64,000 nt of DNA, from positions 8,083 to 72,082 of the forward strand of contig DAIPBO010000009.1 of NCBI GenBank assembly GCA_036774405.1. The letters run 5' to 3'. Positions 7,490-62,551 of the stretch are shown piece by piece; positions within the stretch are counted from its first letter, which is position 1; every line of letters begins with the position of its first letter. The notes under the pieces are model-generated. The model was not told the DNA's origin. It worked only from the letters and a program-made list of their open reading frames with translations, and did no database searches. The translations under genes were made by a program, and so were the position numbers. This stretch comes from Chloroflexota bacterium (lineage in GTDB: Bacteria; Chloroflexota; Anaerolineae; UBA1429).

Positions 7490-7596
7490 GTTCGCCCCAC
7501 TTTGCTTGAGATGATGCGGGGACGTGCCCCCGCTGACCGAAAGCCTCGTCATGGTAAGGCCGCTGTAACAGACTGTCAAATAGCCGCCGGAGCTCA

Positions 7597-7624: not shown

Positions 7625-7672
7625 GAGGGTTGACGTCTGCTGGGAGGTGAGGTTCTGAAAACGCTACTTTTT

Positions 7673-46925: not shown

Positions 46926-46931
46926 GGAGCC

Positions 46932-47777
46932 GTGATGATTCACTTGCTTGATGATGCCATCCGTAAACTGATCCAGACTGAGACGGGCTATGCCGCGCCC
47001 GATGTTGAGGTCAGCTTCAGCCAGCCTACGGGCGATTGGGCAGCTGGCCTGACGCATCCGGTGATCAACTGTTATCTATATGATGTTCGTGAGAATAACG
47101 AACTGCGCTCGGCCGAGTGGACCGTCGACCGCGGCCCCAACGGGTATGCGGCCAAGCGAATGGCTCCGCTGCGCTTTGACGTCAGCTATCTCATCACAGT
47201 GTGGACGCAAGACCATATCGACGACGAGCATGCCATGCTCTGGCGCGTGCTCGAGTCCTTGGCGACGCACGAGACGCTCCCAGACCAGTACTGTGATGAG
47301 GCCCTGAAAAGCCAGCCCTATCCACTGCGCTGCAAGACGGCGCAGGCGACGCGTGCCATCGATGATCTACCCGATTTGTGGAGTGTGATGGACAACCCTT
47401 TGCGTCCATCGATCAACTATGTGGTCACCATGGCAATGGAGCGCATGGAGCCGATCCACAGTCGTCAGGTGGTTACCAAACAGATCGACGTGGTGCAACG
47501 TGGGGTGATCGAAACTCAGGCCGAGACGATCCTGCAGATCGGAGGCATCGTCCACAACGGTGGGCGAACGCCTGCCCCAGTTGCGGGCGCCAGCGTCACT
47601 CTGGTCGAAACGGCCCAGCAGACCTTGACTGATCGGCTGGGGCGCTATCGCTTTCGCAACGTGCCGCGCGGTCGCTATCGGCTGGTGGCAGCCCACGAGG
47701 GCATGCATGGTGAGCGCGAGATCATCGTACCTCTACGTTCGGGCGATACCGACCTGTATGACATCGGTGTGCACTGA
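46932..47777 (+). CDS. eCIS cap/tail-terminator protein (Afp16/Pvc16-like, DUF4255) with a C-terminal carboxypeptidase-regulatory-like beta-sandwich.
   Basis: N-terminus MIHLLDDAIRKLIQTETGY...PVINCYLYDVRENNELRS is the typical DUF4255 start. C-terminal GASVTLVE...GRYRFRNVPRGRYRLVA. Confidence 0.65.
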   Translation: MMIHLLDDAIRKLIQTETGYAAPDVEVSFSQPTGDWAAGLTHPVINCYLYDVRENNELRSAEWTVDRGPNGYAAKRMAPLRFDVSYLITVWTQDHIDDEHAMLWRVLESLATHETLPDQYCDEALKSQPYPLRCKTAQATRAIDDLPDLWSVMDNPLRPSINYVVTMAMERMEPIHSRQVVTKQIDVVQRGVIETQAETILQIGGIVHNGGRTPAPVAGASVTLVETAQQTLTDRLGRYRFRNVPRGRYRLVAAHEGMHGEREIIVPLRSGDTDLYDIGVH

Positions 47778-47855
47778 TGCCGAAAGGAGGCACAGCTTTA
47801 TTCTGACATTGTGGCAGGCACCCTGGCTCTGAGGTTGTGAAAAGGACGAGCGAAC

Positions 47856-49418
47856 ATGCCAATCTATCAGTCTCCGGGCGTTTACATCGAAGAGGTCGAC
47901 CGTGGCACACGGCCCATTGAGGCGGTGGGCACCGCAGTTGCGGCCTTTGTCGGCTTTAGCGCCAAGGCCGAGATGCCAGGCGGCGTCAATGAACCGGTGT
48001 CGCTTTTGGGCAAAGCTGTTGCGGTGACCAACTGGTCGCAGTATGTAGAGAGGTATGGCGGCTTTCTCGATGGGGCATACCTGCCCTATGCCGTGTACGG
48101 CTACTTTTTGAACGGTGGCAGTCGCTGCTATGTCGTCAGCGTCAAGACATTGGGAGCTTCGACAGATCCGAGCCTGGCCAGCCCCGCCATGGTGGCGCTG
48201 CCAAGCGGCGGTGAAAAGCCGGCCGATACCCTACAGATCACGTCACGCTCGGGTGGCCCCGCCGGCAATGATATTCAGGTGGCAGTGCGTCCGCTCGAGG
48301 AGGATCGCTTTACGCTGGTCATCAGCGGGCCCGATGGCGCCAGCGAGACCTTCGAGGGCCTGACTCTCGCCAAAGACGAGCGTAACGTCGAGGTGGTGGT
48401 CAACGCCCAGTCTCGACTGGTCAAAGTGGCGGTGCTTAAGGCGGCTGGCAGTTTGGTCGAGCGCAAGCCCCAAGAGGGCACCTACACGCTGACCGGCGGC
48501 GCTATGCAGACCAAGGCCGTTACTGCGGCCGACTATCGCGGGCAGGTGGCGGAGCGCACGGGGATCGGCGGCCTCGAGGCGGTGGAAGAGATCACCATGC
48601 TGGCTGCACCAGATCTCATGGCCAGCTATCAGGCCGGTGAGATGTCGTTGGGCGACGTGCAGGCGGTGCAGCAGGCAATGTACGAGCACTGCGAACGTGT
48701 CAAGTACGCTTTTGCCATCCTCGATTGCCCACCCGATCTGGGGCCTCAGGCCATGCGCGATTGGCGCCTCACAGCCAACTACGACACCAAGTACGCCGCG
48801 CTCTACTATCCCTGGATCGAGACGGGCGACATGGTACGTGGCAAGGGCGTTGTGCGCGTTCCGCCTTCGGGCCACATCGCTGGCGTCTATGCGCGTAGCG
48901 ACGCCGAGCGGGGCGTACACAAGGCTCCAGCCAACGAGGTGGTGCGCGGTGCTACGGGGCTGCCCATCCAGATCACTCGCGCCGAACAGGATAGCCTCAA
49001 CCCGATCGGCATCAACTGCATCCGATCCTTCCCAGGGCGTGGCCTGCGCGTTTGGGGCGCTCGCACCCTCAGCAGTGATCCTGCCTGGCGCTACATCAAC
49101 GTGCGCCGGCTGTTCAACATGGTTGAAGAGTCGATCGAGCGGGGGACACAGTGGGTCGTGTTTGAGCCGAACGACGCCGACCTGTGGGCACGGGTGCGCC
49201 GCGATGTGCGCGCCTTTCTCAAGACCGTGTGGTCGTCGGGGGCGCTGTTCGGGGCTTCGCCCGACGAAGCCTTTTACGTCAAGTGTGATGAGGAACTCAA
49301 CCCACCCGAAGTGCGCGATCTGGGCCAGCTGATCATCGAGATCGGCATTGCGCCAGTCAAGCCGGCTGAGTTTGTCATCTTCCGTATCAGCCAGTGGGCC
49401 GGGCCATCGGCCGAGTAG
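47856..49418 (+). CDS. Contractile tail sheath protein (Afp2/3/4, phage sheath family).
   Basis: MPIYQSPGVYIEEVDRGTRPIEAVGTAVAAFVG N-terminus. Conserved C-terminal sheath domain (AALYYPW...GHIAGVYARSD...APANE). Size 520 aa. Confidence 0.85.
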   Translation: MPIYQSPGVYIEEVDRGTRPIEAVGTAVAAFVGFSAKAEMPGGVNEPVSLLGKAVAVTNWSQYVERYGGFLDGAYLPYAVYGYFLNGGSRCYVVSVKTLGASTDPSLASPAMVALPSGGEKPADTLQITSRSGGPAGNDIQVAVRPLEEDRFTLVISGPDGASETFEGLTLAKDERNVEVVVNAQSRLVKVAVLKAAGSLVERKPQEGTYTLTGGAMQTKAVTAADYRGQVAERTGIGGLEAVEEITMLAAPDLMASYQAGEMSLGDVQAVQQAMYEHCERVKYAFAILDCPPDLGPQAMRDWRLTANYDTKYAALYYPWIETGDMVRGKGVVRVPPSGHIAGVYARSDAERGVHKAPANEVVRGATGLPIQITRAEQDSLNPIGINCIRSFPGRGLRVWGARTLSSDPAWRYINVRRLFNMVEESIERGTQWVVFEPNDADLWARVRRDVRAFLKTVWSSGALFGASPDEAFYVKCDEELNPPEVRDLGQLIIEIGIAPVKPAEFVIFRISQWAGPSAE

Positions 49419-49461
49419 CTGACTCGTGGCGCATGAGCGCGGCGATTGAGGAGGAACACAG

Positions 49462-49905
49462 ATGGGTGAGCGTCAGGACCCATTGGTTGGTTTTCACTAT
49501 GCCATTGACGTGCAAGGCAAGATCCGCGGTTACTTTACCGAGTGTAGCGGCATCGGCTCAGAGCACGAAGTCATCGAACACAAAGTCGTCGACGAAAAGG
49601 GCCGCGAGGTCATCATGAAGCTCCCTGGACGCCTCAAGTGGGAGAACATCACTCTCAAGCGGGGCATCACCAACAATATGGACATCTGGGATTGGCGCGA
49701 CGAGGTTGTCCGCGGCAAGGTGGATGATGCGCGACGCAACGGCTCGATTATCATGTTCGATCAATCGCTCAAAGAGGTCGCGCGCTGGAACTTTGAGCGA
49801 GCGTGGCCGGTCAAGGTTAGCGGACCGGCGGTCAAGGCTGACAGCAACGAGTTTGCGATCGAGGAACTGGTGATCACGCACGAGTATCTGTATCGCGCGC
49901 CTTAA
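49462..49905 (+). CDS. Inner tube protein (Afp1/Pvc1-like, T4 gp19 fold).
   Basis: PLVGFHYAIDVQG...GYFTECSGIGSE...KWENITLKRGIT pattern of eCIS/T6SS Hcp-like tube proteins. Size 147 aa. Confidence 0.8.
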   Translation: MGERQDPLVGFHYAIDVQGKIRGYFTECSGIGSEHEVIEHKVVDEKGREVIMKLPGRLKWENITLKRGITNNMDIWDWRDEVVRGKVDDARRNGSIIMFDQSLKEVARWNFERAWPVKVSGPAVKADSNEFAIEELVITHEYLYRAP

Positions 49906-49921
49906 GGCTGGCGGCTGAACC

Positions 49922-50281
49922 ATGCAGACCGAATTCACGTTCCGCCTGCCCTTGGGCTATCAGGACGGCGCTGGCCAGGTGCACCGAGAGGGCTCGATGC
50001 GCCTGGCGACGGCCATAGATGAGATCGCGCCGCTTGGCGACGCGCGCGTGCGCGCAAACGAAGCCTATCTCTCCGTGCTGTTGCTCGCGCGGGTGGTCAC
50101 ACGGCTGGGATCTCTTCCGACGGTGACCACCGAGGTCATCGAGGGGTTGTTCTCGGCCGACGTGGCCTTTTTGCAGGCGCTCTATCGGCAGATCAACCTG
50201 ACCGGCGGTTCCGTGGTCGAGGCCGTTTGCCCGCACTGCGGCCAGACGTTTGAGGCGCTGCTCGCCTCGTCCGAACCATGA
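49922..50281 (+). CDS. Small conserved hypothetical protein between the two tube genes (possible assembly chaperone). C-terminal CxxC.
   Basis: 119-aa ORF with an ATG 16 nt after the tube stop. No recognisable family. VCPHCGQTFEAL at the C-terminus. Confidence 0.4.
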   Translation: MQTEFTFRLPLGYQDGAGQVHREGSMRLATAIDEIAPLGDARVRANEAYLSVLLLARVVTRLGSLPTVTTEVIEGLFSADVAFLQALYRQINLTGGSVVEAVCPHCGQTFEALLASSEP

Positions 50282-50322
50282 TCAGGTGACATGAGATCAT
50301 GTGCTGTGAGTAGGATGGGCTG

Positions 50323-50751
50323 ATGGAAGTCGAGGCGTATCCGGCCTTTCGGTTTGCCGTGCAGATCGAGGGCGTCACTGAGGCCATGTTCACCGAATGC
50401 ACCTTGCCGTCCCTCGAGGTAGACGTGCGCGAGCAACTCGAGGGCGGCTATAACGATGGCACGCATCTCTTGCCAGGGCGGGTCAAGCGCGGCACCGTGG
50501 CTCTCAAGCGTGGCGTGGCCCGGCAGAGCGCGCTGCTGCGCTGGTACAACGAAGTGATGCAGGGGCAGATCGCCAAGAGCCGTCGGCAGGTATCGGTGCT
50601 CTTGCTCGACTCGCTTGGCGAGACGGTGCTGCGATGGGATTTCGTCGGAGCCTATCCAACCAAGTGGTCGGGTCCTACACTCAACAGTGGCAGCAAAGAG
50701 CTGGCCGTCGAGACGCTCGAACTGGGCTTTGAGAATGTGACGGTGGGGTGA
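50323..50751 (+). CDS. Second tube paralog (Afp5/Pvc5-like).
   Basis: FRFAVQIEG...FTECTLPSLEVDV...GRVKRGTVALKRGV. Size 142 aa. Confidence 0.8.
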   Translation: MEVEAYPAFRFAVQIEGVTEAMFTECTLPSLEVDVREQLEGGYNDGTHLLPGRVKRGTVALKRGVARQSALLRWYNEVMQGQIAKSRRQVSVLLLDSLGETVLRWDFVGAYPTKWSGPTLNSGSKELAVETLELGFENVTVG

Positions 50752-52793
50752 CTGTGACCGAGCGAACGGCAAAGGTAGACGTGGTAAGCGACCTGGCTCA
50801 CGAGGTGGCCGGTCGGTATGCGCCAGCGAGGCTGCTTGTGGGGCTGGGCTCGACGGGCCCAGTGCGCCTACGGCCGCAGGTGACGCTGCGCCTGAGCGAG
50901 CCGGCACCTCCGGCGATTCCTGGCGAGGCGCAAGAGTCGCCCGTAGCCACAGAGTCCCTGACGACACCAGATAGGTCGGCGGTCGCTCCACCCGAGGTAT
51001 CTACAGCCAGCCAAGGGCGTGCCTGGTATGAGCGGCCGTGGCCGTTCACGGTGGAGCAGGTACAGGCCGCCCTCGAGCAGCCGAAAGTATCCTCACCTGA
51101 GGCCATCGCGGCGTCGCAGATTGTGGCTGAGCCGACGCAATCGGCCGCTGAACAACCATCGCATTCAGGCCCAGCGCCAGATCGCGAGCTGCTGCCTGGC
51201 GCCGCAGAGTCGGCCCCACAACAGGGGGTACCCCCTCGCCGTCGACGCGCACAGGTCGACGAATTGTCTGCGACAGTCACCGCAGTTGCCGAGGATACCC
51301 CGTCTCATAGAGCGCCTCGCGCTGAGTCAGGCCGTATAGACGATGAGATGGTTGCCCCTGCCAGTACGGCCGAGCGGGGGCCGGTCGCCGACGCACACAG
51401 ACCAGCCACTGAGGCCACGCGGCCCGCAGCAGCAATCGCGCGTCGCCAGCGAGTCGATAGCGCGCGACCAGATGCACCTGCTGATGTGATGCCGCCGCGA
51501 GCAGCAGCGCCCGCGCCAGCCAGCCAGGCCCCGAACAAAGACGCGATCGACGCGACTGAAGACAGTGCCATGCAAGTACCCGAACCTCTCGCCCGGCCGG
51601 CGAGAGCCTCGGAGCCAGTCGCGCCGCCGATTGTCTCCAACGCATCCTCTGCTGATGCTGTGGTCGCGCAGAACATGCCCCTCATCGACCTATCCATCGC
51701 CCCCCCGCGTGTCGGGGGTGAATATGATGCTGGGCCGCGCCCAACTGGTGGCGACATAGAGACACGGCCAGCCGCGGAGTCACTGTCCGAGCCCGGTCGC
51801 GCTCTAGCCTCGCCGCAGCCCACAACCATGGTCCGCCCAAGGGCGCCGCTGCTACCATCAACGACAGCTGAACCGCGCAGCAGCGAGGTGGCCCTGACCT
51901 TAGCGGCCGTGCCGCCCGTCGGCGAGCCGCCAACCTCCTTTCTGCCTCCCACAGCGGCGGCAGACGCTACCAGTAGATCGGTGCCCGCGGCTGTGAACGG
52001 TCCATTGCCCCTGCAGCGCAGGGCCGTGCAGCGTAGCGATGTCGCACAGCCTCTGGATCAAGCCGAAAGCCTGCCGGAGCGTCATTCTCAGGCTGAAAGG
52101 CCCACAGAACCTCTGGACAGACCACCCGCAGGGCCACCTGTGTACGACCTCAGCGCGCGGTACGAGGCGGCCCTGGACGCCTATCGTGCTGTGCGCTCAG
52201 GCCAGACAGAGCCGTCCATCGAGGCCGCCTCAGCGTCGCCGGCCATAGCCTCTGAGAACTCAGGTGGCTCGATGGTGCAGCGAGTGTCTCTCCGGTCAGA
52301 GGATGCCGCTTCCGCCTCGCTGCTCGAGCCCTCGGCTCATACCGAGCCGGAGACTCTGGGTACCGCCATCCCGACCTTGTCTCTGGTGCGACCTCTCGCG
52401 CGGGCTGGCGCTGCGGTTGAGCAGGCCCCATCGCCGCAGATGGCGCCAGCAGAAGGCGACCGCAGCGTGCAGCTACAGCGTGTGCAGCAGCCTGTCGCGC
52501 TCGAGCAGGCGCATGTTGGGGCCAGAGTGATCTCGACGCCGCCGATGGTCAGCGAACCGTCGAGGAGCAAGCACGCCGCACCTGAGGCATCTGCCGGTGG
52601 CGATGTGGTTCTGCAGCGCGCAACGGTCACGGCCCCAGAGGGACAGGGCGAAGCGAACACGTCTGGCGCGCAGGCTGGGCCTCCTCCAGCGGCCGAGGTC
52701 AATATCGACCGCCTTGCAGAGGAGGTTATGCAGCGTCTGCGCCGTCGTCTACAGATCGAGGCCGATCGCCTCGGCCGGCCAGGTTGGCGCTAG
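50748..52793 (+). CDS. Large Pro/Ala/Ser-rich low-complexity protein in the tape-measure position (candidate tail-length determinator analog, or a disordered substrate/scaffold). GTG start.
   Basis: 681 aa with extreme P/A/S/E bias and a short helical C-terminus (EVNIDRLAEEVMQRLRRRLQIEADRL). Lies between the tube and the LysM/tube-initiator gene. Confidence 0.35.
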   Translation: MTVTERTAKVDVVSDLAHEVAGRYAPARLLVGLGSTGPVRLRPQVTLRLSEPAPPAIPGEAQESPVATESLTTPDRSAVAPPEVSTASQGRAWYERPWPFTVEQVQAALEQPKVSSPEAIAASQIVAEPTQSAAEQPSHSGPAPDRELLPGAAESAPQQGVPPRRRRAQVDELSATVTAVAEDTPSHRAPRAESGRIDDEMVAPASTAERGPVADAHRPATEATRPAAAIARRQRVDSARPDAPADVMPPRAAAPAPASQAPNKDAIDATEDSAMQVPEPLARPARASEPVAPPIVSNASSADAVVAQNMPLIDLSIAPPRVGGEYDAGPRPTGGDIETRPAAESLSEPGRALASPQPTTMVRPRAPLLPSTTAEPRSSEVALTLAAVPPVGEPPTSFLPPTAAADATSRSVPAAVNGPLPLQRRAVQRSDVAQPLDQAESLPERHSQAERPTEPLDRPPAGPPVYDLSARYEAALDAYRAVRSGQTEPSIEAASASPAIASENSGGSMVQRVSLRSEDAASASLLEPSAHTEPETLGTAIPTLSLVRPLARAGAAVEQAPSPQMAPAEGDRSVQLQRVQQPVALEQAHVGARVISTPPMVSEPSRSKHAAPEASAGGDVVLQRATVTAPEGQGEANTSGAQAGPPPAAEVNIDRLAEEVMQRLRRRLQIEADRLGRPGWR

Positions 52794-52806
52794 GAGGGAT
52801 GCAGAG

Positions 52807-53466
52807 ATGCCTACCACTCGCGGCGGCCTCGAGCCCGCTACCATTACCAACAAGACCACGGGCGAAATCACGGCGTGCATGTTCAATCCGTTTGAGTACA
52901 CGATCAGCAAGCAGAATCAGTACGAGAACGCCGAGACCAAAGGGCGGAACATTCCTCGTGTACGCTTTCGGCAGGGTGGCGCCCAGACGCTGGGGCTCAG
53001 GCTGCTGTTCGACACCTATGCCGAGGCCAGCGATGTGCGGGCCGTCACGGGTACGCTATGGCGCATGATGATGATCGATGAGGATCAGGCTGATAGCCGT
53101 ACCGGCAAAGGAGAGCCGCCACACTGTGTCTTTCGGTGGGGCAGGTTCGAATTCGAGGCCGTGATCACCCGCGTGACAGAGAAGATGACTCTCTTCTTGC
53201 GTGACGGTACGCCGGTGCGCAGCGAGGTTGACATTGCCCTGCAGCAAGTGATCGATGAGGAAGAGCATGCCGCAACCAACCCCACATCGGGTGGTGGTGC
53301 CGCCTATAGGACACGCCTGGTACTGGCCGGCGATCGCCTCGACCTGATCGCCTTTGACGTGTATGGCGATGCCACCCGCTGGCGTCTGTTGGCCGAGGCC
53401 AACGCCATCACCGATCCGCTACGCCTGCGGCCTGGGCAGGTTCTCCTAATCCCACCGTTGGTGTGA
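52807..53466 (+). CDS. LysM-domain tail protein (Afp7/P2 gpX-like tube initiator/baseplate hub component).
   Basis: C-terminal LysM YRTRLVLAGDRLDLIAFDVYGDATRWRLLAEANAITDP...LRPGQVLLIP. GGAGGG RBS. The ORF-track start (52597) lies inside the previous gene. Confidence 0.6.
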   Translation: MPTTRGGLEPATITNKTTGEITACMFNPFEYTISKQNQYENAETKGRNIPRVRFRQGGAQTLGLRLLFDTYAEASDVRAVTGTLWRMMMIDEDQADSRTGKGEPPHCVFRWGRFEFEAVITRVTEKMTLFLRDGTPVRSEVDIALQQVIDEEEHAATNPTSGGGAAYRTRLVLAGDRLDLIAFDVYGDATRWRLLAEANAITDPLRLRPGQVLLIPPLV

Positions 53467-53470
53467 GACG

Positions 53471-55174
53471 ATGACAGCCAATCAGGAAGCACTGATCAGA
53501 CAGATTCATGTGAGCGTGGGGGGCCAAGAGCTCGACGCACGGCTGATGACCGACCTGTTCCGCGTCGAAGTCGATACCAGCCTCACCCTGCCCGACATGT
53601 GTGTGCTGCACCTACACGATCGCAACGCCGAACTTGTTGATGAAGGTCCCTTTGAGCTGGGGGCCGAAGTGAGTGTGGGGGTGGGCGACGAGCAGGGCCG
53701 CGGTGACAACGCTCTGTTTGTTGGCGAGATCACTGGCATCGAGCCCGAGTATCGCCGCGGGACAGTGGTCGATCTGCTGGTGCGAGCCTACGACCGCACC
53801 CATCGGTTGCAGCGAGGTACGCGGACGCGCACCTTTCAGAATGTCACCGATAGCGACATCGCCACGGAGGTGGCTCAAGTGGCGGGGCTGCGTGCCGACG
53901 TGGACACGACCACCACGCAACACGAGCACGTATTCCAGGATGGCACCAGCGACTATGCCTTCTTACAACAGCGTGCCGATGCGATCGGCTACTATCTCTG
54001 GGTGCGCGAGCAGACGCTCTACTTTAAGCGCGAGTCTGCCACGGGCAATGCTGTGGACCTCGAGTGGGGCCGCGGGTTGCTCGAGTTTCATCCGGTGCTG
54101 GCGCTAACACAACAGGTCAACGAAGTGGCCGTGCGCGGCTGGAATCCCGAGGCCAAGCGTGAGGTTCTGGGGAGTGCCACCACCGGCAGCGCAGCGCCCG
54201 CAATCGGCCAGTCTGGCAGCGGGGCCAGTCTGGCAGAAGACTCCTTTGGGGCGGCCAGCGCACTGGTGGTGGCAACGGGGCTTGCAGCGCAAGAGGAGGC
54301 CGACCGGCTGGCACGCGCCACATTCGATCACTATGACGGCCGTTTTGTCGAGGCGCAAGGTGTCTGCGTGGGCAATGATGCTATCCAGGCTGGAACCATT
54401 GTGAACATCAGCGCCGTGGGCCAGCGCTTTAGTGGACACTATACGGTTACCAAGGCTACCCATATCTGGGATACTCAAGATGACTATCTGACCCACTTTG
54501 CTGTGACGGGCAGAGGTGGAGACACGCTTCGTGAGCTGATTACTGGCAGACCACGAGAGGATCGCACGTGGCCCATCATGGTGGGCATTGTCACCAACAA
54601 CGATGATCCGCAGGGGCAGGGCAGAGTGCGCGTCAGGTTGCCATGGCTGGGAGACGAGGCCGAAGCCCAATGGGCACGTGTGGCCAGCCCAGGAGCCGGC
54701 AACCGGCGAGGGCTTTTGGTGCTGCCCGAGGTGAACGATGAGGTGCTGGTCGGCTTTGAGCAGGGTGATATCGGACAGCCGATCGTGCTCGGGGGTCTAT
54801 GGAATGGGCAGGACGCCTTGCCAGCTGACTCGTCTGATGTGGTGGTGAATGGCGAGGTCAACCAGCGTGCATGGGTGACGCGACGAGGGCACAAGATCGT
54901 GCTCTCTGAACAGAACCCGGCGTTGGTGCGCATTGAGAGTGTGGCGGGCAACACGCTGGTTATCGATGATGACAACGCACGGATTGAGATAAGAACTGCA
55001 GGGGGCAACACACTAACGCTCGACGACAACGGACAGTCACTCAAGATCGGGGGCAATGGACAGATCGAGATCGAGTCGAGCACCAACCTCAGTATCAAAG
55101 CGGGCGGCAATCTTGATCTCGAGGCCAGTGGCGTCACCACGATCCGTGGCGCCACTGTACAGCTCAACCCATAG
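53471..55174 (+). CDS. Baseplate hub/spike protein (Afp8-like, phage late control gene D + gp5/VgrG-like C-terminal beta-helix).
   Basis: gpD-type N-domain. C-terminal repeats ...LVIDDDNARIEIRTAGGNTLTLDDNGQSLKIGGNGQIEIESSTNLSIKAGGNLDLEASG. Confidence 0.75.
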   Translation: MTANQEALIRQIHVSVGGQELDARLMTDLFRVEVDTSLTLPDMCVLHLHDRNAELVDEGPFELGAEVSVGVGDEQGRGDNALFVGEITGIEPEYRRGTVVDLLVRAYDRTHRLQRGTRTRTFQNVTDSDIATEVAQVAGLRADVDTTTTQHEHVFQDGTSDYAFLQQRADAIGYYLWVREQTLYFKRESATGNAVDLEWGRGLLEFHPVLALTQQVNEVAVRGWNPEAKREVLGSATTGSAAPAIGQSGSGASLAEDSFGAASALVVATGLAAQEEADRLARATFDHYDGRFVEAQGVCVGNDAIQAGTIVNISAVGQRFSGHYTVTKATHIWDTQDDYLTHFAVTGRGGDTLRELITGRPREDRTWPIMVGIVTNNDDPQGQGRVRVRLPWLGDEAEAQWARVASPGAGNRRGLLVLPEVNDEVLVGFEQGDIGQPIVLGGLWNGQDALPADSSDVVVNGEVNQRAWVTRRGHKIVLSEQNPALVRIESVAGNTLVIDDDNARIEIRTAGGNTLTLDDNGQSLKIGGNGQIEIESSTNLSIKAGGNLDLEASGVTTIRGATVQLNP

Positions 55175-55177
55175 GAG

Positions 55178-55585
55178 TTGATGATGGCGGCGGTGCCGGC
55201 GGCCAAGCAGGGCGATTTGGTGCAGGCGATGGACACCCACATCGTGATGGTGCCCACGCCCGGTGGATCTGTACCCACGCCCATGCCCGGGCACCCTTTC
55301 GCGGGCACCATCGATGGTGGGTTGAGCAGTAATGTCACCATCATGGGGCGACCCGCTGCCACCATGAACAGTACTGCTACCAACCAGCCCCCACATATAC
55401 CCATCGGCGGGCCATCTTTTCAGGTGCCGCCCAGTAATCGTGCCACCATTGTGCAAGGAAGCGCCACAGTCTTGATCAACGGACTGCCAGCGGCGCGTAA
55501 CGGTGATATGGCGCTCACTTGCGATGACGCCGCACCAGCTCCGCACGGTCAGGTGATTGCCACAGGTACCGTCTTGATTGGCTGA
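55178..55585 (+). CDS. PAAR-domain spike tip protein (Afp10-like).
   Basis: Three PAAR-like beta-strand repeats. Ends GDMALTCDDAAPAPHGQVIATGTVLIG. Size 135 aa. Confidence 0.65.
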   Translation: MMMAAVPAAKQGDLVQAMDTHIVMVPTPGGSVPTPMPGHPFAGTIDGGLSSNVTIMGRPAATMNSTATNQPPHIPIGGPSFQVPPSNRATIVQGSATVLINGLPAARNGDMALTCDDAAPAPHGQVIATGTVLIG

Positions 55586-55599
55586 AAGGCAGGAGACCA

Positions 55600-55995
55600 T
55601 TGGCGGGCGATATCATTGGACGTGGTTGGACATTTCCGCCTCGACTCGATGAGCGTGGTCAGGTCGCCATGGTCGGTGGCGAGGTCGAGATCGAACAGGC
55701 AGTAAGGATCATTCTAGGCACCTCACCGGGCCAGCGGGTCATGCGACCCGAGTTCGGCTGTCGGCTTCAAGAACTCGTTTTTGCGCCCAACAACAGCCGC
55801 ACCGCTGGCCTCGCCGAGCGCTATGTACGCGAGGCGCTAGGGCGCTGGGAGCCGCGCATTCGAGTGACCGCGGTGAGCGTGAGCACTGACAATCAGCATG
55901 AGGGGCAGTTGTCTATCGGCGTCGAGTATCTCATCAAGGCAACTCACTCGAGCCGTTCCTTGGTCTACCCATTCTACCTGATTCCAGAGGAGTAA
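55600..55995 (+). CDS. Baseplate wedge protein gp25/GPW-like (Afp9).
   Basis: GDIIGRGWTFP...EQAVRIILGTSPGQRVMRPEFGCRLQELVF is the conserved GPW_gp25 motif. Size 131 aa. Confidence 0.8.
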   Translation: MAGDIIGRGWTFPPRLDERGQVAMVGGEVEIEQAVRIILGTSPGQRVMRPEFGCRLQELVFAPNNSRTAGLAERYVREALGRWEPRIRVTAVSVSTDNQHEGQLSIGVEYLIKATHSSRSLVYPFYLIPEE

Positions 55996-56001
55996 AGCAG
56001 C

Positions 56002-57987
56002 ATGCCGCTGCCCAGCCAGCCCCTAGATGATCGCTCGTTTCAGGACCTGGTTGACGAGGCCAAGAAGCGCATCCCGCTCTATTGCCCCGAGTGGACTGAT
56101 CACAATGTGAGTGACCCCGGGGTGACACTGATTGAGCTGTTTGCCTGGATGATGGACATGCTCCTATTTCGCCTCAATCAGGTGCCACGCAAGCACTATG
56201 TCAAGCTGCTCGAGTTGCTTGGCATCCAGCTTCAGCCACCAAGGGCCGCTATGGCACCGTTGGTATTCTATCTATCGACGCCACAGGCACAACCGGTGCA
56301 GGTGGCTCGTGGCACCGCGGCGAGCACGAAGCGTTCAGGCGGTGAGGAGGCGATCGTCTTTACCACCGAGAAGGACCTTACGATCCAGCCGGCCCAGCTA
56401 GAGCATCTAGTGGCACGCCGACGTCTCGGCGATCAGGGCATGGTATTCCAGGATATCGGCCTGCAAAGGCTCGAGCGCGACTTTCGTCCGTTCTCTGCCA
56501 CCGATCCGCATCAGGGCGAGGCACTCTACTTTGGTTTGGGCGGCGAGTTGCATCGACACGTGCTCGGGCTCGAGCTCGACTGTGTGCGCGCAGGTGGGCT
56601 GAACATCATCCCAGAAAACCCACCTCTGGTGTGGCAGGCTTGGAGCGAGGGGGGCTGGAGCGATGTTGATGTGGAGCAGGATACCACCGGCGGCCTAAGC
56701 TGGACTGGGCAGGTGCGGATTCATCTGCCCCAGATGGCCCGCAGCGACGTCAACGGTGTTGAGGCGTACTGGGTGCGCTGCCAGGTGATCGCCGCAGAGC
56801 AGGGGCGGCGTGCCTATGCGACCTCGCCGATCATCCGCAATGTGCGGGCTCTGACCTGGGGTGCCACTGTCGATGCCATGCATGCCACCGAGGTACAGGC
56901 CGAGCCGTTGGGGCGCAGTGATGGGTCGCCCGGGCAGGTGTTCAGTCTCGAACACGCGCCAGTTCTGCCGCGCATGAAAGAGGAGTGCGTCGTGATCTGG
57001 CAACCCGGGCTCGACAGCGGGGAGGAATGGCACGAGGTGGAGAGTTTCGCCGAGACCTCGGCCGAGGATCGGTGCTACACACTCGACAGCGCCACCGGTG
57101 AAGTAACCTTTGGCCCTGCCATCCGCCAGCGCGATGGGTCGGTGCGTAGCTACGGGGCCATACCCCCGCGCGGCGCCGAGCTGCGCATGACGCGCTATCG
57201 CTATGGCGGTGGCACTCGTGGCAATGTCCGTGCAGGGGCGGTCACCGAGCTGCGCACTGCCATACCCTACGTCGCACGCGTGACGAATCGCCTGCCGGCC
57301 AGCGGCGGGTGGGACCCCGAGGATCTAGAGGCAGCGATGTTCCGTGCCCGCCATGAGTTGCGGACACGCTATCGGGCGGTAGCTCCTGACGATTTCGAGT
57401 TCTTGGTGCTGCAGGGCTTTCAGGGCCGCATCGCCCGTGCGCGCTGTCTGCAGGCAGCCCAGATGGGGCGTGGCGCACCCTCGCCAGGGCAGGTCTATGT
57501 GGTGGTCGTTCCCCAGCTGTCACCTGACGAGGCTCGGCGCTACATCCCCCCCTCGCGGCTCGCCCTGACGCCCGAGTTGCAGCAAGAGGTCACAGCTTTC
57601 CTGGATGAGCGCCGTCTCTTGACGACGCAGCTGGCCGTGCGTGAGGCGGGCTACAAGCGCATTGCTGTACAGGTGGCGGTCGTAGCCAGGCCAGGCACCG
57701 ACGCCCACCGGTTAAGGACTGATGTGCACCAAGCGCTCGACCTTTTCCTGAATCCTCTCGTGGGGGGATTGGATGGCACCGGCTGGCCCTTTGGGCGTGA
57801 GGTCTATCTGTCTGACCTGTACACGTGTATTCAGCAGGTCGACGGGTTGCTCAACGTACAGACACTGCAGATGGCCTGGCTTGATGAGACCGACCAGCCG
57901 CACCTGGGCGAGCGCAAAATCGACTTGTTGGCGCATGAGGTGGCGATCTCAGACATCCACGTCGTCACTGTTGAGGCGGGAGAGTGA
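56002..57987 (+). CDS. Baseplate J-like protein (Afp11, T4 gp6-like).
   Basis: 661 aa. N-terminal FQDLVDEAKKRIPLYCPEWTDHNVSDPGVTLIELFAWM is typical of baseplate J. Confidence 0.8.
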   Translation: MPLPSQPLDDRSFQDLVDEAKKRIPLYCPEWTDHNVSDPGVTLIELFAWMMDMLLFRLNQVPRKHYVKLLELLGIQLQPPRAAMAPLVFYLSTPQAQPVQVARGTAASTKRSGGEEAIVFTTEKDLTIQPAQLEHLVARRRLGDQGMVFQDIGLQRLERDFRPFSATDPHQGEALYFGLGGELHRHVLGLELDCVRAGGLNIIPENPPLVWQAWSEGGWSDVDVEQDTTGGLSWTGQVRIHLPQMARSDVNGVEAYWVRCQVIAAEQGRRAYATSPIIRNVRALTWGATVDAMHATEVQAEPLGRSDGSPGQVFSLEHAPVLPRMKEECVVIWQPGLDSGEEWHEVESFAETSAEDRCYTLDSATGEVTFGPAIRQRDGSVRSYGAIPPRGAELRMTRYRYGGGTRGNVRAGAVTELRTAIPYVARVTNRLPASGGWDPEDLEAAMFRARHELRTRYRAVAPDDFEFLVLQGFQGRIARARCLQAAQMGRGAPSPGQVYVVVVPQLSPDEARRYIPPSRLALTPELQQEVTAFLDERRLLTTQLAVREAGYKRIAVQVAVVARPGTDAHRLRTDVHQALDLFLNPLVGGLDGTGWPFGREVYLSDLYTCIQQVDGLLNVQTLQMAWLDETDQPHLGERKIDLLAHEVAISDIHVVTVEAGE

Positions 57988-57990: not shown

Positions 57991-58941
57991 ATGGCTGATG
58001 CCCTGGGCGCACGATTGATCATCCGTATGCCCGATGGCCCCGACGTAGTTTTTGCACTTGCTCAGCCGGTGGTGCGCATCGGCCGTAACCCTGCGCCACA
58101 GAACGACCTGGTGCTACCACATAGCGCTGTGTCGCGCTATCACGCTCGCATCTACTGCGATCGCTTGCCCTATCGCGTGCAAGATGTGGGCAGCAGCAAC
58201 GGCACCGCCCTGAACGACGCGCCGGTGGCCCCTAATGAGATGTGGCCCCTGACTGACGGCGATATCATTGGCATCGGGCCCTTTCGGCTGACCTATGTGG
58301 CACCCCGCGAGTCGGATCAGGCTTTGGCCATCGAGCCTCCTGTGGCGAGGGCTGAGGCAGAGATCGCCGCAGGTGGGCAGGCAATGCCCGGCACACCAGG
58401 TGGCGCAGAGCCGCCCATCCCCCCCTCTCAAGGGCAGCGTGTATTGTCAGAGCCGCCGCCATGGTTAGGCATGCCCACCGACGCCAGTCGGTGGTTGCAG
58501 CACCTGCCGCCACTCTACGCCGAGGAAGGATTCCTGGGGCGGTATCTCCTGCTGTTCGAAGATTTGCTGGGGCCAGCCGAACAGGCGATTGCGCATTTCG
58601 ACCTGTTCCTTGACCCCGAGACCTGCCCCGATGATATGGTGCCGTTGTTGGCGCAGTGGCTTGGCGTTGAGGTTGCCGAGCGCTGGCCACTGGCCGTCAA
58701 GCGGCAGCTCGTAAAGCATGGCGCCTGGCTGCATCGAGCCCGTGGTACGCTGCCTGGCCTAAAGCGTCACCTCGAGATCTGCACGGGCGGTGCGGCCGAG
58801 ATCAGCGAGAACGACGAGCGCCCTCACACCATCGTCGTTCGCATCGCTGCCCCTCAAGAGACGATCGATCGGCCGCTGCTCTCTGAGGTGATCCGCTATC
58901 ACTGCCCTGCTCACGTGGGCTTTGCCTTACGGATAGACTGA
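57991..58941 (+). CDS. FHA domain fused to a P2 gpI-like baseplate protein (Afp12-like).
   Basis: N-terminal FHA (VVRIGRNPAPQNDLVLPHSAVSRYHARIY...VQDVGSSNGTALND). C-terminal LDPETCPDDMVPLLAQWLGVEV...KRQLVKHGAWLHRARGT matches the tail protein I family. Confidence 0.7.
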   Translation: MADALGARLIIRMPDGPDVVFALAQPVVRIGRNPAPQNDLVLPHSAVSRYHARIYCDRLPYRVQDVGSSNGTALNDAPVAPNEMWPLTDGDIIGIGPFRLTYVAPRESDQALAIEPPVARAEAEIAAGGQAMPGTPGGAEPPIPPSQGQRVLSEPPPWLGMPTDASRWLQHLPPLYAEEGFLGRYLLLFEDLLGPAEQAIAHFDLFLDPETCPDDMVPLLAQWLGVEVAERWPLAVKRQLVKHGAWLHRARGTLPGLKRHLEICTGGAAEISENDERPHTIVVRIAAPQETIDRPLLSEVIRYHCPAHVGFALRID

Positions 58942-58951: not shown

Positions 58952-61900
58952 GTGCCGAGAAAGGCGACTGACATGGAGAGACTCGTTGGCACGGTGCTCA
59001 ATAGCTCCTATCGCGTTGACAAGCTGCTTGGCCAGGGGGGCATGGGCGCCGTCTTTCGCGCTCGAGACGTCGCACTGGACAGAGACGTGGCCATCAAGCT
59101 GATGCATAGCCACATCTCGACGCAGCAAGGCTTTCGCGAGCGCTTTTTGCAGGAAGCACGGGCCATCGCCGCTCTGTCGCATCCTGGCATCGTGCCGATC
59201 CACGCCTTCAGTAGTGATCCCCAGCAGCTCTATATCGTGATGGCGTTCATCGAGGGGCAGAACCTAGCCGACTGGCTTCATCTGCTCAATCAGCGCCAGC
59301 AGACGGCCTCGCTTTCCGAAACGCTGGGCATCGCCGAGATGGTGGCCGACGCTTTGGCCTATGCGCATCGTCGGGGCGTGTATCATCGCGACATCAAGCC
59401 CGGCAATATAATCCTTAGACCGCTGGAGGCGGGACAGGTCAACGAGGCGGGGCTGACCTTTCACCCCATCGTGACCGACTTTGGCCTGGCCAAACTGGCT
59501 GAGGGCGGCGTGCAGTCGATGGCAGGGCTCTCGATGGGCACGCCGGCCTACATGGCGCCCGAGCAGTGTGAAGCCAGGCCCATCGACGGTCGCGCTGACC
59601 TCTACTCGCTGGGCATCGTGCTCTACGAGTTGGTCGCAGGGCGCGTGCCCTTTGCAGTCAGCACCCTCACCGAGGCGCTGAAGGCTCACACACAACAGAC
59701 GCCGCCTCCACCACGTACACTGGCGCCCGATCTGCCCACGTCTGTCGAGAGGGTCATCCTCAAGGCACTGGCCAAGCGGCCCGAGGAGCGCTTTCAGAAT
59801 GGCGCCGAGATGGCCGAAGCGCTGCGCCTGGCGCGGCAGGGTCTGTCGGCTGACCAGGGGGCCTCCACAGCAGCGCCCACGCAGGCGGGCTATGCCAGCC
59901 TGGCAACGTTGATGTCACAGCAGACGCCACCGCCAGCGCCCAAAGAGGCGGCCTGGCCTACGCCGCCCTCTGATCTCGAAGCTGGTGCTCAGGTTATGGT
60001 GATGGCCCCCGATGGCACGAGTAGCGCGGTGGCCTTTGGGACGCGAAGCGCCCTCACCATCGGCCGTGACCCCGGCAACAGCATCGCGCTGGACGATCCG
60101 CAAGTCTCGCGCCAGCACTGCCAGGTGAGCACCGACAACGGGCGGTTTTTTGTGACCGACCTCAATTCGACCAACGGTACCTTTCTGGGCGACAACAAGC
60201 TGCTGCCGGGCGTGGCCGAGCCCTGGCGGCCAGGGCAGCCTGTACGCGTAGGGGGGCATTGGCTGCGTCTGCGGTTGGCCGAGGGCGGCTCACGACCGGT
60301 GGCTCAAGAGGCATTGTCTGCCGCTGTGGGCCCACGCCTGACCGCAAGGCCTGTCACCCTGACGCTCGAGCCTGAGCGCGTGATTGTAGAGCCTGGCAAG
60401 GCCGTGAACATGACGCTTCATGTGCTCAATCAGCAGCAGCAGGTCGATCATTTTGTCGCGGTGGTAGAGCAGCTGCCACAGCAGTGGGTTACAGCCCCTG
60501 CCCAGCCATTGCGCCTTGCCCCCGGCGATGCCGGCATCTTGGCTCTGCGCCTAGCGCCGCCTCGTGACGCGACCAGCGTGAGTGGCGAGCATGTCTTTGA
60601 TGTTCGCGTGGTATCACGGGCCGACCCGAGCATCAGCGCTCAGGCCACCGGCACTTGCCAGATCACGCCGTTTCGCGCCATGAGCCTCGACCTGCAGCCC
60701 AGCACCTTTGTCAACGCGGGCACGGCGTTCCTCGGTGTAGCGAACCAAGGCAATAGCCTGGAGACCATAGAGTTGGCCGTGGTCGACCCAGCAGGGGTGT
60801 TGGCCACACCCCCTTCGAGCCAGCGCCTTGTGTTGCAGGCAGGGCAGCGCCAGCAGGTAGAACTGCCTCTTGTCGCCAAGCGGAGGCGCCCCTTGATCGG
60901 CAATCCGAGTACCAGCGCTTTTCAGGTGCAGGCGCGCGCCCAGGAGCAACAGCTCGCCGCGGTACAGGGCTCGTTCACGGTGAGACCGATCGTGCCCACG
61001 TGGGCCATCCCCATTCTCACGACGCTGGTGTTGCTGCTCTGCGCGGGGGTGGCGCTCGCCTACAACAACGCCCAAAAGGGCAGGACAGCCGAACGCACCG
61101 CCATCGCGATGGGCATCAACCAGGCGACGGTAACCGCTGAAGCGGTCATGGCCATCAATGCGACGCAAACGGCAGAAGCATTGGCCGCAGTGGCGACGTC
61201 ACAGGCTCAGGCAGAGGCTACTGCCAACATGCAGACGGCCACCGTTGTAGCGGCCAAGAGCACCGCAGACTGGCTCGCTGCCGATACCGATGGAGATGGG
61301 CTGACCAATGCACAAGAGCAGGCCTATGGCACAGACCCTCATAACATCGACACCGATGGGGATACCCTACCAGACGGCCACGAAGTGGCGACCGGAACGA
61401 GCCCCGTCAATCGAGACACCGATGGCGATGGCCAGCAGGACAACGTTGACCCCAGCCCCGGCGAGCTGCCCACCGCCACACCCTCGCCCACCTCTACGGC
61501 CACGCCGACGCTGACGCCGAGCCCGTCGCCAACGCCAGAGCACGTTTTTGCAGCCGACCAGATCCGCTCGTTTGCAGTGGTAGCCACCGATGTTGGCACT
61601 GTGACGGGGGTCTGCATCAGGCACGATAATGCGGGGCCAGAACCCGATTGGTTCGTATCAGAGGTGCGCGTCGACGGTGGGGCAGGGTTTGTCTCGTTTA
61701 CGTTCAATCGTTGGTTGGCCACTGACAAGGCCGATGGGATGATCGAGGCGTGTCGTGGCACCGCAACCAGTCTTCTCATCGAAGGGCGTCTACCGCCGGC
61801 ACGACCGGACTTGATTGAGGATAGCGCGTTCCATCTGCTTGCTCTGACGCCCACGCCCACGATCGATTTCGGCGTCATCCGCGAGTTCTACCAGGTGCAG

Positions 61901-62050
61901 CCCAGGCCCTTCTTGCCCATGCTGCCTCTCGGCAAGGCCTACACCATCGAGATTACGACGGGCAACGCCAACGGTGCGGGCACCAGCGCCAAGGTGTCGG
62001 CCAAGATAGCGGGAAGTAGCGGGCAGACCGACTGGATCGCTGTAGAGTAG
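58952..62050 (+). CDS. Transmembrane Ser/Thr protein kinase. Architecture is kinase - FHA - tandem beta-sandwich repeats - TM - thrombospondin type-3 repeats - PLAT/LH2 domain.
   Basis: Hanks motifs GQGGMGAVF, AIK, HRDIKPGNIIL, DFG and APE. Internal FHA (ALTIGRDPGNSIALDDPQVSRQHCQV...NSTNGTF). TM WAIPILTTLVLLLCAGVALAY. TSP3 DTDGDGLTNAQE / DTDGDTLPDGHE / DTDGDGQQDNVD. C-terminal PLAT-like beta-sandwich. Confidence 0.8.
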   Translation: MPRKATDMERLVGTVLNSSYRVDKLLGQGGMGAVFRARDVALDRDVAIKLMHSHISTQQGFRERFLQEARAIAALSHPGIVPIHAFSSDPQQLYIVMAFIEGQNLADWLHLLNQRQQTASLSETLGIAEMVADALAYAHRRGVYHRDIKPGNIILRPLEAGQVNEAGLTFHPIVTDFGLAKLAEGGVQSMAGLSMGTPAYMAPEQCEARPIDGRADLYSLGIVLYELVAGRVPFAVSTLTEALKAHTQQTPPPPRTLAPDLPTSVERVILKALAKRPEERFQNGAEMAEALRLARQGLSADQGASTAAPTQAGYASLATLMSQQTPPPAPKEAAWPTPPSDLEAGAQVMVMAPDGTSSAVAFGTRSALTIGRDPGNSIALDDPQVSRQHCQVSTDNGRFFVTDLNSTNGTFLGDNKLLPGVAEPWRPGQPVRVGGHWLRLRLAEGGSRPVAQEALSAAVGPRLTARPVTLTLEPERVIVEPGKAVNMTLHVLNQQQQVDHFVAVVEQLPQQWVTAPAQPLRLAPGDAGILALRLAPPRDATSVSGEHVFDVRVVSRADPSISAQATGTCQITPFRAMSLDLQPSTFVNAGTAFLGVANQGNSLETIELAVVDPAGVLATPPSSQRLVLQAGQRQQVELPLVAKRRRPLIGNPSTSAFQVQARAQEQQLAAVQGSFTVRPIVPTWAIPILTTLVLLLCAGVALAYNNAQKGRTAERTAIAMGINQATVTAEAVMAINATQTAEALAAVATSQAQAEATANMQTATVVAAKSTADWLAADTDGDGLTNAQEQAYGTDPHNIDTDGDTLPDGHEVATGTSPVNRDTDGDGQQDNVDPSPGELPTATPSPTSTATPTLTPSPSPTPEHVFAADQIRSFAVVATDVGTVTGVCIRHDNAGPEPDWFVSEVRVDGGAGFVSFTFNRWLATDKADGMIEACRGTATSLLIEGRLPPARPDLIEDSAFHLLALTPTPTIDFGVIREFYQVQPRPFLPMLPLGKAYTIEITTGNANGAGTSAKVSAKIAGSSGQTDWIAVE
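61280..61455 (+). repeat. Three tandem thrombospondin type-3 (DxDxDG) calcium-binding repeat units inside the kinase gene.
   Basis: Repeated gacaccgatggnga-type units encoding DTDGDG. Confidence 0.5.
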
Positions 62051-62053: not shown

Positions 62054-62088
62054 GCTCAGGCCATCGTCTCCGAGACGATGGCCTGAGC
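62054..62088. terminator. Bidirectional terminator palindrome between the kinase gene and convergent larC-like gene.
   Basis: GCTCAGGCCATCGTCTC-c-GAGACGATGGCCTGAGC near-perfect inverted repeat. Confidence 0.5.
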
Positions 62089-62094: not shown

Positions 62095-62547
62095 TCAGCG
62101 GGAGAGGGCCAGCCGCTCGGCTTCGCGGGCGACCTGACGTAGCGGCACACCATGGGCCTCTGCCACGCTGGCGCAGTCATCGTACTCGGCCTTGGCGGCC
62201 ACCACACGCCCCTTGATCAGTTTAAGCTTGCAGTGCACTTCGCCCCAGGGTGTTGAGACGGTGACGGTTTGCCGCTGACAGACGATGCGCTGCCACGTCT
62301 GCCAGCGCACACCCAACGTCGACGTATGCAGCAAGAGGCGGTCGCGCAGGCTTGCTGCATCTTCTGGGCGGGCCAGCACGCTGAACACCACGGCTGGACG
62401 GCTCTTTTTCATCACGATGGGCGTGTGCCAGGCATCAAGCGCTCCCTCGCGCAGCATCGCCTCCAGCACATGCCCCAGTTCTTCGCCGGTCATATCGTCG
62501 ATGTTGCAGGTCAGCAGAACGACATCCTCACATTGCGGCGTAGACAT
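62095..62547 (-). CDS. larC: LarC C-terminal domain only (DUF111 C-terminal half, LarC2-like CTP-binding domain).
   Basis: NIDDMTGEELGHVLEAML...TPIVMKKSRPAVVFSVL and ...AKAEYDDCASVA... match the middle and C-terminal conserved blocks of DUF111/LarC. Only 150 aa. No N-terminal half is adjacent. Confidence 0.5.
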   Translation of the reverse strand: MSTPQCEDVVLLTCNIDDMTGEELGHVLEAMLREGALDAWHTPIVMKKSRPAVVFSVLARPEDAASLRDRLLLHTSTLGVRWQTWQRIVCQRQTVTVSTPWGEVHCKLKLIKGRVVAAKAEYDDCASVAEAHGVPLRQVAREAERLALSR

Positions 62548-62551
62548 GGAG

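Follow-up and report, generated by a model that had tools for sequence, protein, structure and literature searches.

To our knowledge, CisA is the only membrane protein known to be needed for the firing of the contractile injection system (CIS) of Streptomyces. CisA is bitopic: it has a cytoplasmic N-terminus, in a cytoplasmic part that is largely unstructured, and an external C-terminal domain that resembles substrate-binding proteins. It is required for the firing of CIS-Sc, and a contact with the baseplate, at Cis11, has been predicted (PMC12237407). The CIS of the Chloroflexota Roseiflexus and Thermogemmatispora were placed beside that of Streptomyces in clade IId in 2026; the Roseiflexus particles are cytoplasmic and unanchored, and that report mentions neither a kinase nor an FHA domain (PMC12998442). 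In a third machine, the H1 type VI secretion system (T6SS) of Pseudomonas aeruginosa and its relatives, a threonine phosphorylation pathway is made up of PpkA/TagE, Fha1/TagH, and PppA/TagG, and the phosphorylation of TagH by TagE promotes assembly (PMC13584744). Here we describe a stretch of 64,000 nucleotides, which we call the window, from a Chloroflexota bacterium (Anaerolineae, UBA1429; assembly GCA_036774405.1, contig DAIPBO010000009.1, positions 8,083 to 72,082 of the forward strand). The window contains a CIS cluster whose last gene encodes a predicted membrane-spanning Ser/Thr kinase, and the gene just before it encodes the baseplate protein Cis12 with an FHA domain fused to its N-terminus.

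Phospho-regulation of contractile injection is a known principle. Our results suggest that it extends to a clade IId-like CIS, and what is new here is this setting, a phosphothreonine reader that is fused to the baseplate, and a sensor with a permuted PLAT domain. The architecture of these proteins and their genomic association are solid, while we infer the mechanism. In the full-text literature, which leaves most subscription papers outside its coverage, we found no report of a Hanks-type kinase or an FHA domain with a CIS other than the T6SS. With a putative sensor ectodomain, a kinase, and a reader on the baseplate all in hand, the trigger of a cytoplasmic clade IId CIS becomes directly testable.

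The kinase and its proposed baseplate partner

An earlier note on this DNA had described an open reading frame at 58952..62050 (+) that encodes 1032 residues from a GTG start, in the order Ser/Thr kinase, FHA, two beta-sandwiches, transmembrane (TM) helix, TSP3, and PLAT. The reading frame is exactly as described. Pfam matches, sequence profiles, and hydrophobicity bear out the order of the domains, to which we add a stalk after the TM helix and a circular permutation of the PLAT domain. (Residue numbers for this protein are counted from the GTG at 58952.) The first residue of every homologue corresponds to Met8, and the motif AAAGG lies 9 nucleotides 5' of the ATG at 58973, so the likely start is this ATG and the true product is probably 1025 residues long.

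The kinase domain (59009..59797, +; residues 20-282) is of the Hanks type and matches Pkinase in Pfam (PF00069) with 151.5 bits against a cut-off of 31.7 (E 4e-44). The catalytic Lys and the Asp residues of HRD and DFG, to which the earlier note had pointed, are all there, and so is the rest of the set. As judged from the sequence and its alignment with Mycobacterium tuberculosis PknA, the protein has the glycine-rich loop (G27-x-G29-G30-x-G32), K49 (in VAIK), E68, H145-R146-D147, N152, D176-F-G, and A202-P-E204, and these catalytic residues are conserved across homologues of the family. The kinase looks active, and with every catalytic residue present we ruled out a pseudokinase. We also ruled out an anti-phage defence kinase: the matches to MADS6 and PglW involve the kinase domain only, and their scores are far under the family cut-offs.

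In mycobacteria, PknA and PknB autophosphorylate on threonines in the activation loop and in the juxtamembrane linker, and these recruit FHA proteins (FhaA, GarA, and Rv1747). PknA and PknB of M. tuberculosis are the best matches of our kinase domain in the PDB (E 1e-46 to 1e-52), and the Chloroflexota kinase may follow the same logic of phosphorylation and FHA binding. The mycobacterial kinases differ in that they have PASTA or other ectodomains, act on cell division and metabolism, and have no link to an injection system. Also, the matches in NCBIfam (PknB, PknD, and others) are at the level of the kinase domain and are all sub-threshold, so the protein lies outside every curated equivalog family; NF033483, for example, scores 275 against a cut-off of 450.

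Two conserved positions are candidates for phosphorylation. First, in all 69 homologues (100%), the counterpart of S189 in the activation loop is Ser or Thr. Second, the linker between the kinase and FHA domains contains the motif S316-L-A-T319 (59897..59908, +), in which S316 is conserved in 99% and T319 in 96% of these homologues, while the rest of the linker is variable. S316-L-x-T319 might serve both for autophosphorylation and for the docking of an FHA domain.

The kinase's own FHA domain (60056..60247, +; residues 369-432) matches PF00498 with 64.5 bits against a cut-off of 20.7 (E 1e-17), and its phosphothreonine-binding residues are intact (G371-R372, S386-R387, H389, and N408-G-T410). 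It is followed by two Ig-like beta-sandwiches of the FixG_C / PapD-ASH type (60347..60988, +; residues 466-573 and 575-679, approximately), which have the invariant motifs N-x4-V-D-H and N-x-G-N and which give sub-threshold Ig-like signals in Pfam (FixG_C and NPCBM_assoc, at residues 479-563). The sole strongly hydrophobic segment in a Kyte-Doolittle window is W684-Y704 (61001..61063, +). This agrees with the single TM helix of the earlier note and shifts it from the proposed position of about 672-694. Because a kinase needs ATP, the N-terminus is cytoplasmic, and the Ig pair is on the cytoplasmic side, close to the membrane. A match to PF22067 (Cep192_D3), which we had considered as an alternative ectodomain, maps onto this cytoplasmic Ig pair and was ruled out.

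The partner gene (57991..58941, +) encodes 316 residues, with an FHA domain at residues 28-96, a Pro-rich linker, and a Tail_P2_I domain, which is the Cis12 baseplate wedge. Cis12 of Streptomyces (9gtp_E, 190 residues) has no FHA domain and aligns only to residues 171-299, so the N-terminal FHA domain and the Pro-rich linker are an addition. We will refer to the fusion as FHA-Cis12. Its FHA domain is matched by Pfam and has phosphothreonine-binding residues that are conserved in 37 homologues. There are about 100 clusters of such fusions, and every named one is from the Chloroflexota.

The kinase gene comes last in the CIS cluster, on the same strand as FHA-Cis12 and 10-31 bp after it. Its place as last gene had been pointed out in the earlier note, along with the advice to look for similar architectures beside other CIS, and the link turns out to be conserved across classes of Chloroflexota. 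We fetched 14 loci singly (L001-L011 via the kinase and L012-L014 via FHA-Cis12), and in 12 the kinase adjoins FHA-Cis12. Among these 12 are metagenome-assembled genomes that bear the labels Thermomicrobia and Thermogemmatispora; the kinases can be as little as 34% identical, and the flanking genes are unrelated. This family of kinases has many members, and the core of kinase, FHA, two Ig domains, and TM helix is present in all 120 relatives that were listed, a few probable fragments aside, and every named relative belongs to the Chloroflexota.

As a second sample, we retrieved 80 independent metagenome loci with Cis12 and counted as informative those with enough flanking sequence. Among the informative loci, a kinase is near 35 of the 47 Cis12 genes that have the FHA domain (directly downstream in 32 cases) and near none of the 5 that do not. 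This co-occurrence has a p value of 0.0024 by a one-sided hypergeometric test, but the loci are not phylogenetically independent.

It could be argued that the protein is a general-purpose receptor kinase and a neighbor of the CIS cluster by chance, as Chloroflexota have many Hanks kinases with FHA domains and as two of the homologues (L003 and L009) are not near a CIS. We consider this very unlikely. Chance does not explain why the adjacency persists across classes, among unrelated flanks, and at such low identity, or why Cis12 has gained a matching FHA domain. Also, the two genes are on the same strand with a gap of only 10-31 bp, and it is only behind the kinase gene that a hairpin is found.

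A probable membrane partner with exchangeable parts

The loci that lack the kinase give some indication of how the system was built. In about half of the 12 informative loci that have FHA-Cis12 without an adjacent kinase domain, there is instead a membrane protein with an FHA domain and no kinase: an FHA-Ig-Ig-TM-SH3 protein follows Cis12 in L070 and L073, and an FHA-FHA-...-TM protein follows it in L050, L052, L053, and L067. Where Cis12 has no FHA domain, the next protein has neither domain: it is an Ig-Ig-TM-CARDB protein in L089 (1263-3344) and an Ig-TM-Ig protein in L091 (3182-5641). So the gene just after cis12 has a conserved core: it encodes a bitopic protein whose Ig pair lies in the cytoplasm, close to the membrane, and whose ectodomain can be swapped. 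From these comparisons, the Ig-Ig-TM protein is probably the ancestral membrane partner of the CIS, and the FHA and kinase domains look to be later additions, which appear together with the FHA domain on Cis12. The series from Ig-Ig-TM to FHA-Ig-Ig-TM to kinase-FHA-Ig-Ig-TM, in parallel with the gain of an FHA domain by Cis12, looks like a regulatory layer that was bolted onto a phage-tail machine. The earlier note was right about the architecture, the apparent competence of the kinase, and the link to the CIS, but it missed that the ectodomain is swappable, and its proposals for a substrate, for calcium, and for the class of the CIS lack support or are doubtful, as discussed below.

There are other variations on this architecture. 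In L014, the kinase has two FHA domains (2459-5881) and its gene lies between those for Cis11 and FHA-Cis12, which is a different gene order; a convergent gene downstream (7024-9921) encodes a Peptidase_C39_2 protein of 965 residues. L079 encodes a fusion of 1517 residues (8312-12862), kinase-FHAx3-kinase-FHA-Ig-Ig-TM, about 1.4 kb downstream of FHA-Cis12. In L010 (6971-13120) and L011 (5256-11460), FHA-Cis12 is followed by two tandem kinase-FHA-Ig-Ig-TM paralogues with unlike ectodomains, one of which is weakly similar to SBP_bac_5 and another of which has TSP3 along with a domain like 3-keto-disaccharide hydrolase or LamG.

Given this core, might the protein be mainly a structural anchor or a surrogate for a fibre, in the position of Afp13? 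In that case the Ig pair would hold the baseplate at the membrane and the kinase activity would be accessory, much as for the TM-bearing, fibre-like proteins of the IId systems of Anabaena and Streptomyces. The position of the gene, immediately behind cis12, is one that genes for fibres or anchors occupy; the Ig-Ig-TM core persists where the kinase or FHA domains are missing; and the C-terminal ectodomains are variable, like the receptor-binding domains of fibres. On the other hand, the residues for catalysis and for phosphothreonine binding show strict conservation throughout the family, a sign that signalling is under selection, and the Chloroflexota CIS that have been imaged to date are unanchored. 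So we think it quite unlikely that anchoring is the main function.

Instead, we favor the view that this is a receptor Ser/Thr kinase, bitopic and dedicated to the CIS, which couples the baseplate to the membrane via phosphothreonine. We consider this to be somewhat better than an even bet. The ectodomain would report on the state of the membrane, the envelope, or the surroundings. Its cue would activate the kinase and lead to autophosphorylation, perhaps at S189 or at S316/T319. The phosphothreonines would then be read by the FHA domains of Cis12, present on all six wedges, by the kinase's own FHA domain, or by both. As a result, a CIS that is already assembled in the cytoplasm would dock with its baseplate at the membrane, or would be licensed to fire at that site. 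In other words, the additions of FHA and kinase domains would make the coupling by the Ig-Ig-TM protein phospho-dependent. That the kinase recruits the baseplate protein with the FHA domain was already proposed in the earlier note, and it remains the version that we favor: an FHA domain was added to Cis12, and it co-occurs with a membrane protein that has kinase or FHA domains.

We also offer, more tentatively, the idea that the protein is a tail fibre turned inside-out. An event outside the cell or in the envelope would act through the swappable ectodomain, which would bind a ligand or a membrane and is a permuted PLAT in our case, and through the kinase to trigger docking and firing, and the FHA domains of the six wedges would read the phosphothreonine mark. 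This seems possible rather than probable. If it is true, then contractile injection systems other than the T6SS would have their first example of a phospho-gated trigger, and there would be a molecular explanation of how a cytoplasmic CIS “knows” that it is time to fire.

The most similar arrangement is that of PpkA and Fha1 in the T6SS. In both cases, the cluster for a contractile injection machine encodes a Hanks kinase that is bitopic and has a sensor domain outside the cytoplasm, and it also encodes an FHA protein. Reading of phosphothreonine controls the T6SS machine, and we suppose that it controls the Chloroflexota machine as well. Nevertheless, there are several differences. First, the Chloroflexota machine is of the Afp/CIS-Sc type (eCIS_core, Pvc16 cap, and Cis11/12); we found no T6SS genes of the TssJLM/TssBC type in the CIS cluster, and a match to TssF is weak (21.4 bits against a cut-off of 25). 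Second, the FHA reader is fused to the baseplate wedge rather than being a separate TagH. The TagH-family model VI_FHA (TIGR03354) matches only the kinase's own FHA domain, at 47.6 against a cut-off of 120.25. Third, the Chloroflexota kinase itself has an FHA domain, and it has an Ig pair as well. Fourth, its ectodomain consists of TSP3 and a permuted PLAT, versus vWA in the T6SS kinase. As for CisA, it is also bitopic and it is encoded with the closest solved relative of the Chloroflexota CIS, but by its published description it is without kinase, FHA, or Ig domains. Our best reading is that the kinase system parallels both the threonine phosphorylation pathway of the T6SS and CisA and belongs to neither family. 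The regulatory layer appears to have been gained independently of the PpkA-Fha1 pathway.

The T6SS does offer a precedent for another explanation, as there the phosphorylation of TagH by TagE promotes assembly. The kinase could regulate assembly rather than docking: it would phosphorylate CIS proteins (Cis12, the Ala/Pro-rich protein in the tape-measure position, the AAA ATPase, or the sheath), and the FHA domain would promote or block the assembly of the baseplate or sheath without any tethering. This would also fit with the Roseiflexus particles, which are free in the cytoplasm, and with the co-occurrence of the kinase and the FHA domain on Cis12. But we find this explanation rather unlikely. 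No Thr is conserved in the linker of Cis12, the Ala/Pro-rich protein is a poor candidate for a substrate, and it would be left unexplained why an Ig-Ig-TM membrane protein is kept at the same gene position in systems whose Cis12 has no FHA domain.

The Ala/Pro-rich protein (50748-52793, +; 681 residues) deserves some comment, as the earlier note had called it Thr/Ser-rich and had proposed it as a substrate of the kinase. It is 18% Ala and 13% Pro, with Ser and Thr together making up only 14.6%, so it is not especially rich in these, and it is probably disordered. One genome has a kinase that is 85% identical and a counterpart of this protein that is 35% identical over part of the length. The counterparts range from 320 to 760 residues, only the C-terminal part is conserved, and in L001 the protein is divided between two genes. 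Because of its composition and poor conservation, we rejected this protein, which sits in the tape-measure position, as the favored substrate.

Several observations weigh against a dedicated, phosphothreonine-dependent coupling of the baseplate to the membrane. The pairing of the genes has exceptions. Besides the stand-alone kinases of L003 and L009 and the 12 of 47 informative metagenome loci that have FHA-Cis12 without an adjacent kinase domain, L013 has FHA-Cis12 and, in place of the kinase, a protein of 609 residues (7014-8843) with no Pfam match or similarity to the kinase; in L033, FHA-Cis12 is followed by a protein of 756 residues (3120-5387) with no Pfam match, kinase similarity, or TM segment; and L040 is another exception. 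Also, the linker of Cis12 has no conserved Thr in the homologues of FHA-Cis12, and the FHA-Ig-Ig-TM variants that lack the kinase begin directly at the FHA domain, without the S-L-x-T linker, so T319 cannot be a universal docking site. A phosphatase might be expected from the comparison with the T6SS, yet no PP2C of the PppA/TagG type was found among the 50 open reading frames of the window that we scanned with Pfam, a scan that covered small reading frames only partly. The unanchored particles of Roseiflexus fit with transient docking and not with permanent anchoring (PMC12998442). Finally, each of the mechanistic steps, namely the phosphorylation sites, the signal, and the docking, is one that we infer.

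The ectodomain and its permuted PLAT

Outside of the membrane, the protein continues with a low-complexity stalk of about 70 residues that is rich in Ala, Thr, and Gln (61064..61276, +; residues 705-775), three TSP3-type calcium-binding repeats (61277..61456, +), and the PLAT domain. The repeats have the motifs DTDGDG at 778, DTDGDT at 800, and DTDGDG at 822, and TSP3_bac (PF18884) matches in two stretches with 32.4 bits against a cut-off of 25, so the TSP3 array of the earlier note stands, with calcium binding as a prediction. A Pro/Thr linker separates these motifs from the PLAT. The earlier note had also suggested that the kinase senses an envelope or calcium cue. Three close homologues that have the PLAT domain (P0018, P0023, and P0027) are missing the TSP3 repeats, which makes calcium an unlikely main cue. 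From this pattern, the repeats are more likely to be structural calcium sites than a sensor.

The PLAT domain, which the earlier note had recognized, is matched by Pfam with 40.4 bits against a cut-off of 23. Pfam aligns residues 868-926 to positions 46-108 of the profile only, plus a second stretch, and the reason is that the domain is a circular permutant, which the note had missed. The C-terminal half of the domain comes first in the chain (61508..61762, +; residues 853-937, about positions 45-109 of the profile). It is followed by a linker that is predicted to be disordered (61763..61924, +; residues 938-991) and then, at the end of the protein, by the N-terminal half (61925..62047, +; residues 992-1032, positions 1-31). 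The final 40 residues, KAYTIEITTGNANGAGTSAKVSAKIAGSSGQTDWIAVE, bear the motif of the N-terminal strands of PLAT. The canonical order of the eight strands would run through the profile from 1 to 109, and the native order (45-109, linker, 1-31) puts the end of the profile ahead of its beginning, which is why we call it a permutant.

Three other results agree with this. First, when the halves were scanned singly, the front scored 28.5 bits (positions 44-109) and the tail scored 23.2 bits (positions 1-31), and when the tail was artificially joined to the front, a single stretch covered positions 1-109 with 55.1 bits. Second, the permuted order is common to all 23 of the homologues that have PLAT, as is the end with the motif of the N-terminal half. 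A profile of 17 re-joined homologues matches the full PLAT domain of coral 8R-lipoxygenase (2fnq, residues 7-115, E 1.9e-16) and also those of 11R-lipoxygenase, polycystin-1 (3e-9), 5-lipoxygenase (2e-8), and Rab6IP1, with PDB entries 6a70 and 3o8y among the matches. Third, in an AlphaFold2 model of residues 838-1032, both halves have a pLDDT (predicted local distance difference test) above 90, and a linker of about 45 residues between them is disordered, with a pLDDT of about 40. In the homologues this linker is 37-67 residues long and highly variable, and in many of them it is rich in Ile, Leu, Val, Pro, and Thr. It could be a loop that inserts into the membrane, or it could be a leftover linker between repeats.

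The latter possibility brings us to where the domain came from. We searched 1.8 billion representative proteins exhaustively and obtained 819 matches, and outside of the family the best were eukaryotic proteins with tandem PLAT domains, similar to LOXHD1, from Mastigamoeba, Mesostigma, and the cestode Mesocestoides. In some of the LOXHD1-like matches, the whole query aligns contiguously over a boundary between repeats. This fits with an out-of-register excision from a tandem array and suggests that the permuted PLAT was born in this way, possibly with transfer between domains of life. A permutation that is conserved and whose nearest kin are eukaryotic tandem arrays makes a neat case of domain evolution.

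PLAT domains are membrane- and lipid-binding modules, as in lipoxygenases and alpha-toxin, and the Streptomyces CIS fires on membrane stress. Together, these make a sensor of membrane state attractive, and we would speculate, by analogy, that this is what the ectodomain may be.

The CIS cluster and neighboring genes

The rest of the CIS cluster lies at 42989..57987 (+) and, with the partner gene, makes up a complete contractile injection system. In order, it encodes an AAA ATPase, eCIS_core+TPR, a Pvc16-type cap, the sheath, a gp19-type tube protein, a protein of 119 residues, another gp19-type tube protein, the 681-residue Ala/Pro-rich protein, CIS_tube+LysM, a VgrG-like spike, PAAR, gp25, and Baseplate_J (Cis11), and then the FHA+Tail_P2_I protein discussed above. 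Housekeeping genes lie both upstream and downstream of the cluster.

The earlier note had taken this for an extracellular CIS (eCIS), which is probably wrong. The closest solved relatives are those of Streptomyces coelicolor, both for the sheath (8bky, E 4e-161) and for Cis11 (9gtp, E 2.5e-146), with full-length matches in each case, and Afp, PVC, AlgoCIS, and Anabaena are far behind. Going by these closest matches, the system that we know here from its genes is probably Streptomyces-like, of clade IId, and cytoplasmic.

Two genes of the cluster have unusual features. The eCIS_core (DUF4157) is fused to a long array of TPR repeats (45027-46925); as listed, its reading frame shares some sequence with the end of the AAA ATPase gene, so the true start codon probably lies further downstream. 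The protein of 119 residues (49922-50281), between the gp19-type tube genes, has no Pfam match, and its size and position are kept in L001, L002, and L004.

Elsewhere in the window are a trio of genes for a MoxR-type AAA_3 ATPase, DUF58, and DUF4129 (9412-13017, -) and a gene for a VIT+VWA protein of 711 residues (29413-31548, +); we saw no connection to the CIS for either. A terminator-like site at 58906-58919 is weak and at the level of chance (2 such sites were found and 2.2 were expected). The hairpin that follows the kinase gene (62054..62088, +) is GC-rich, with a stem of 16 bp, a free energy of -34.9 kcal/mol, a z score of -7.3, and no T-tract. It lies directly 3' of the stop codon, between convergent genes, and for want of a T-tract it was not picked up by a simple scan for terminators. 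The genes that converge on it (62095-63980, -) are three: a Ni_insertion protein of 150 residues, which matches positions 241-374 only of the LarC profile, an AIRC (LarB-like) protein, and a PP-loop protein similar to NAD synthase. They look like a lar set for the nickel-pincer cofactor, and the same genes also flank the kinase in L001, L002, and L012.

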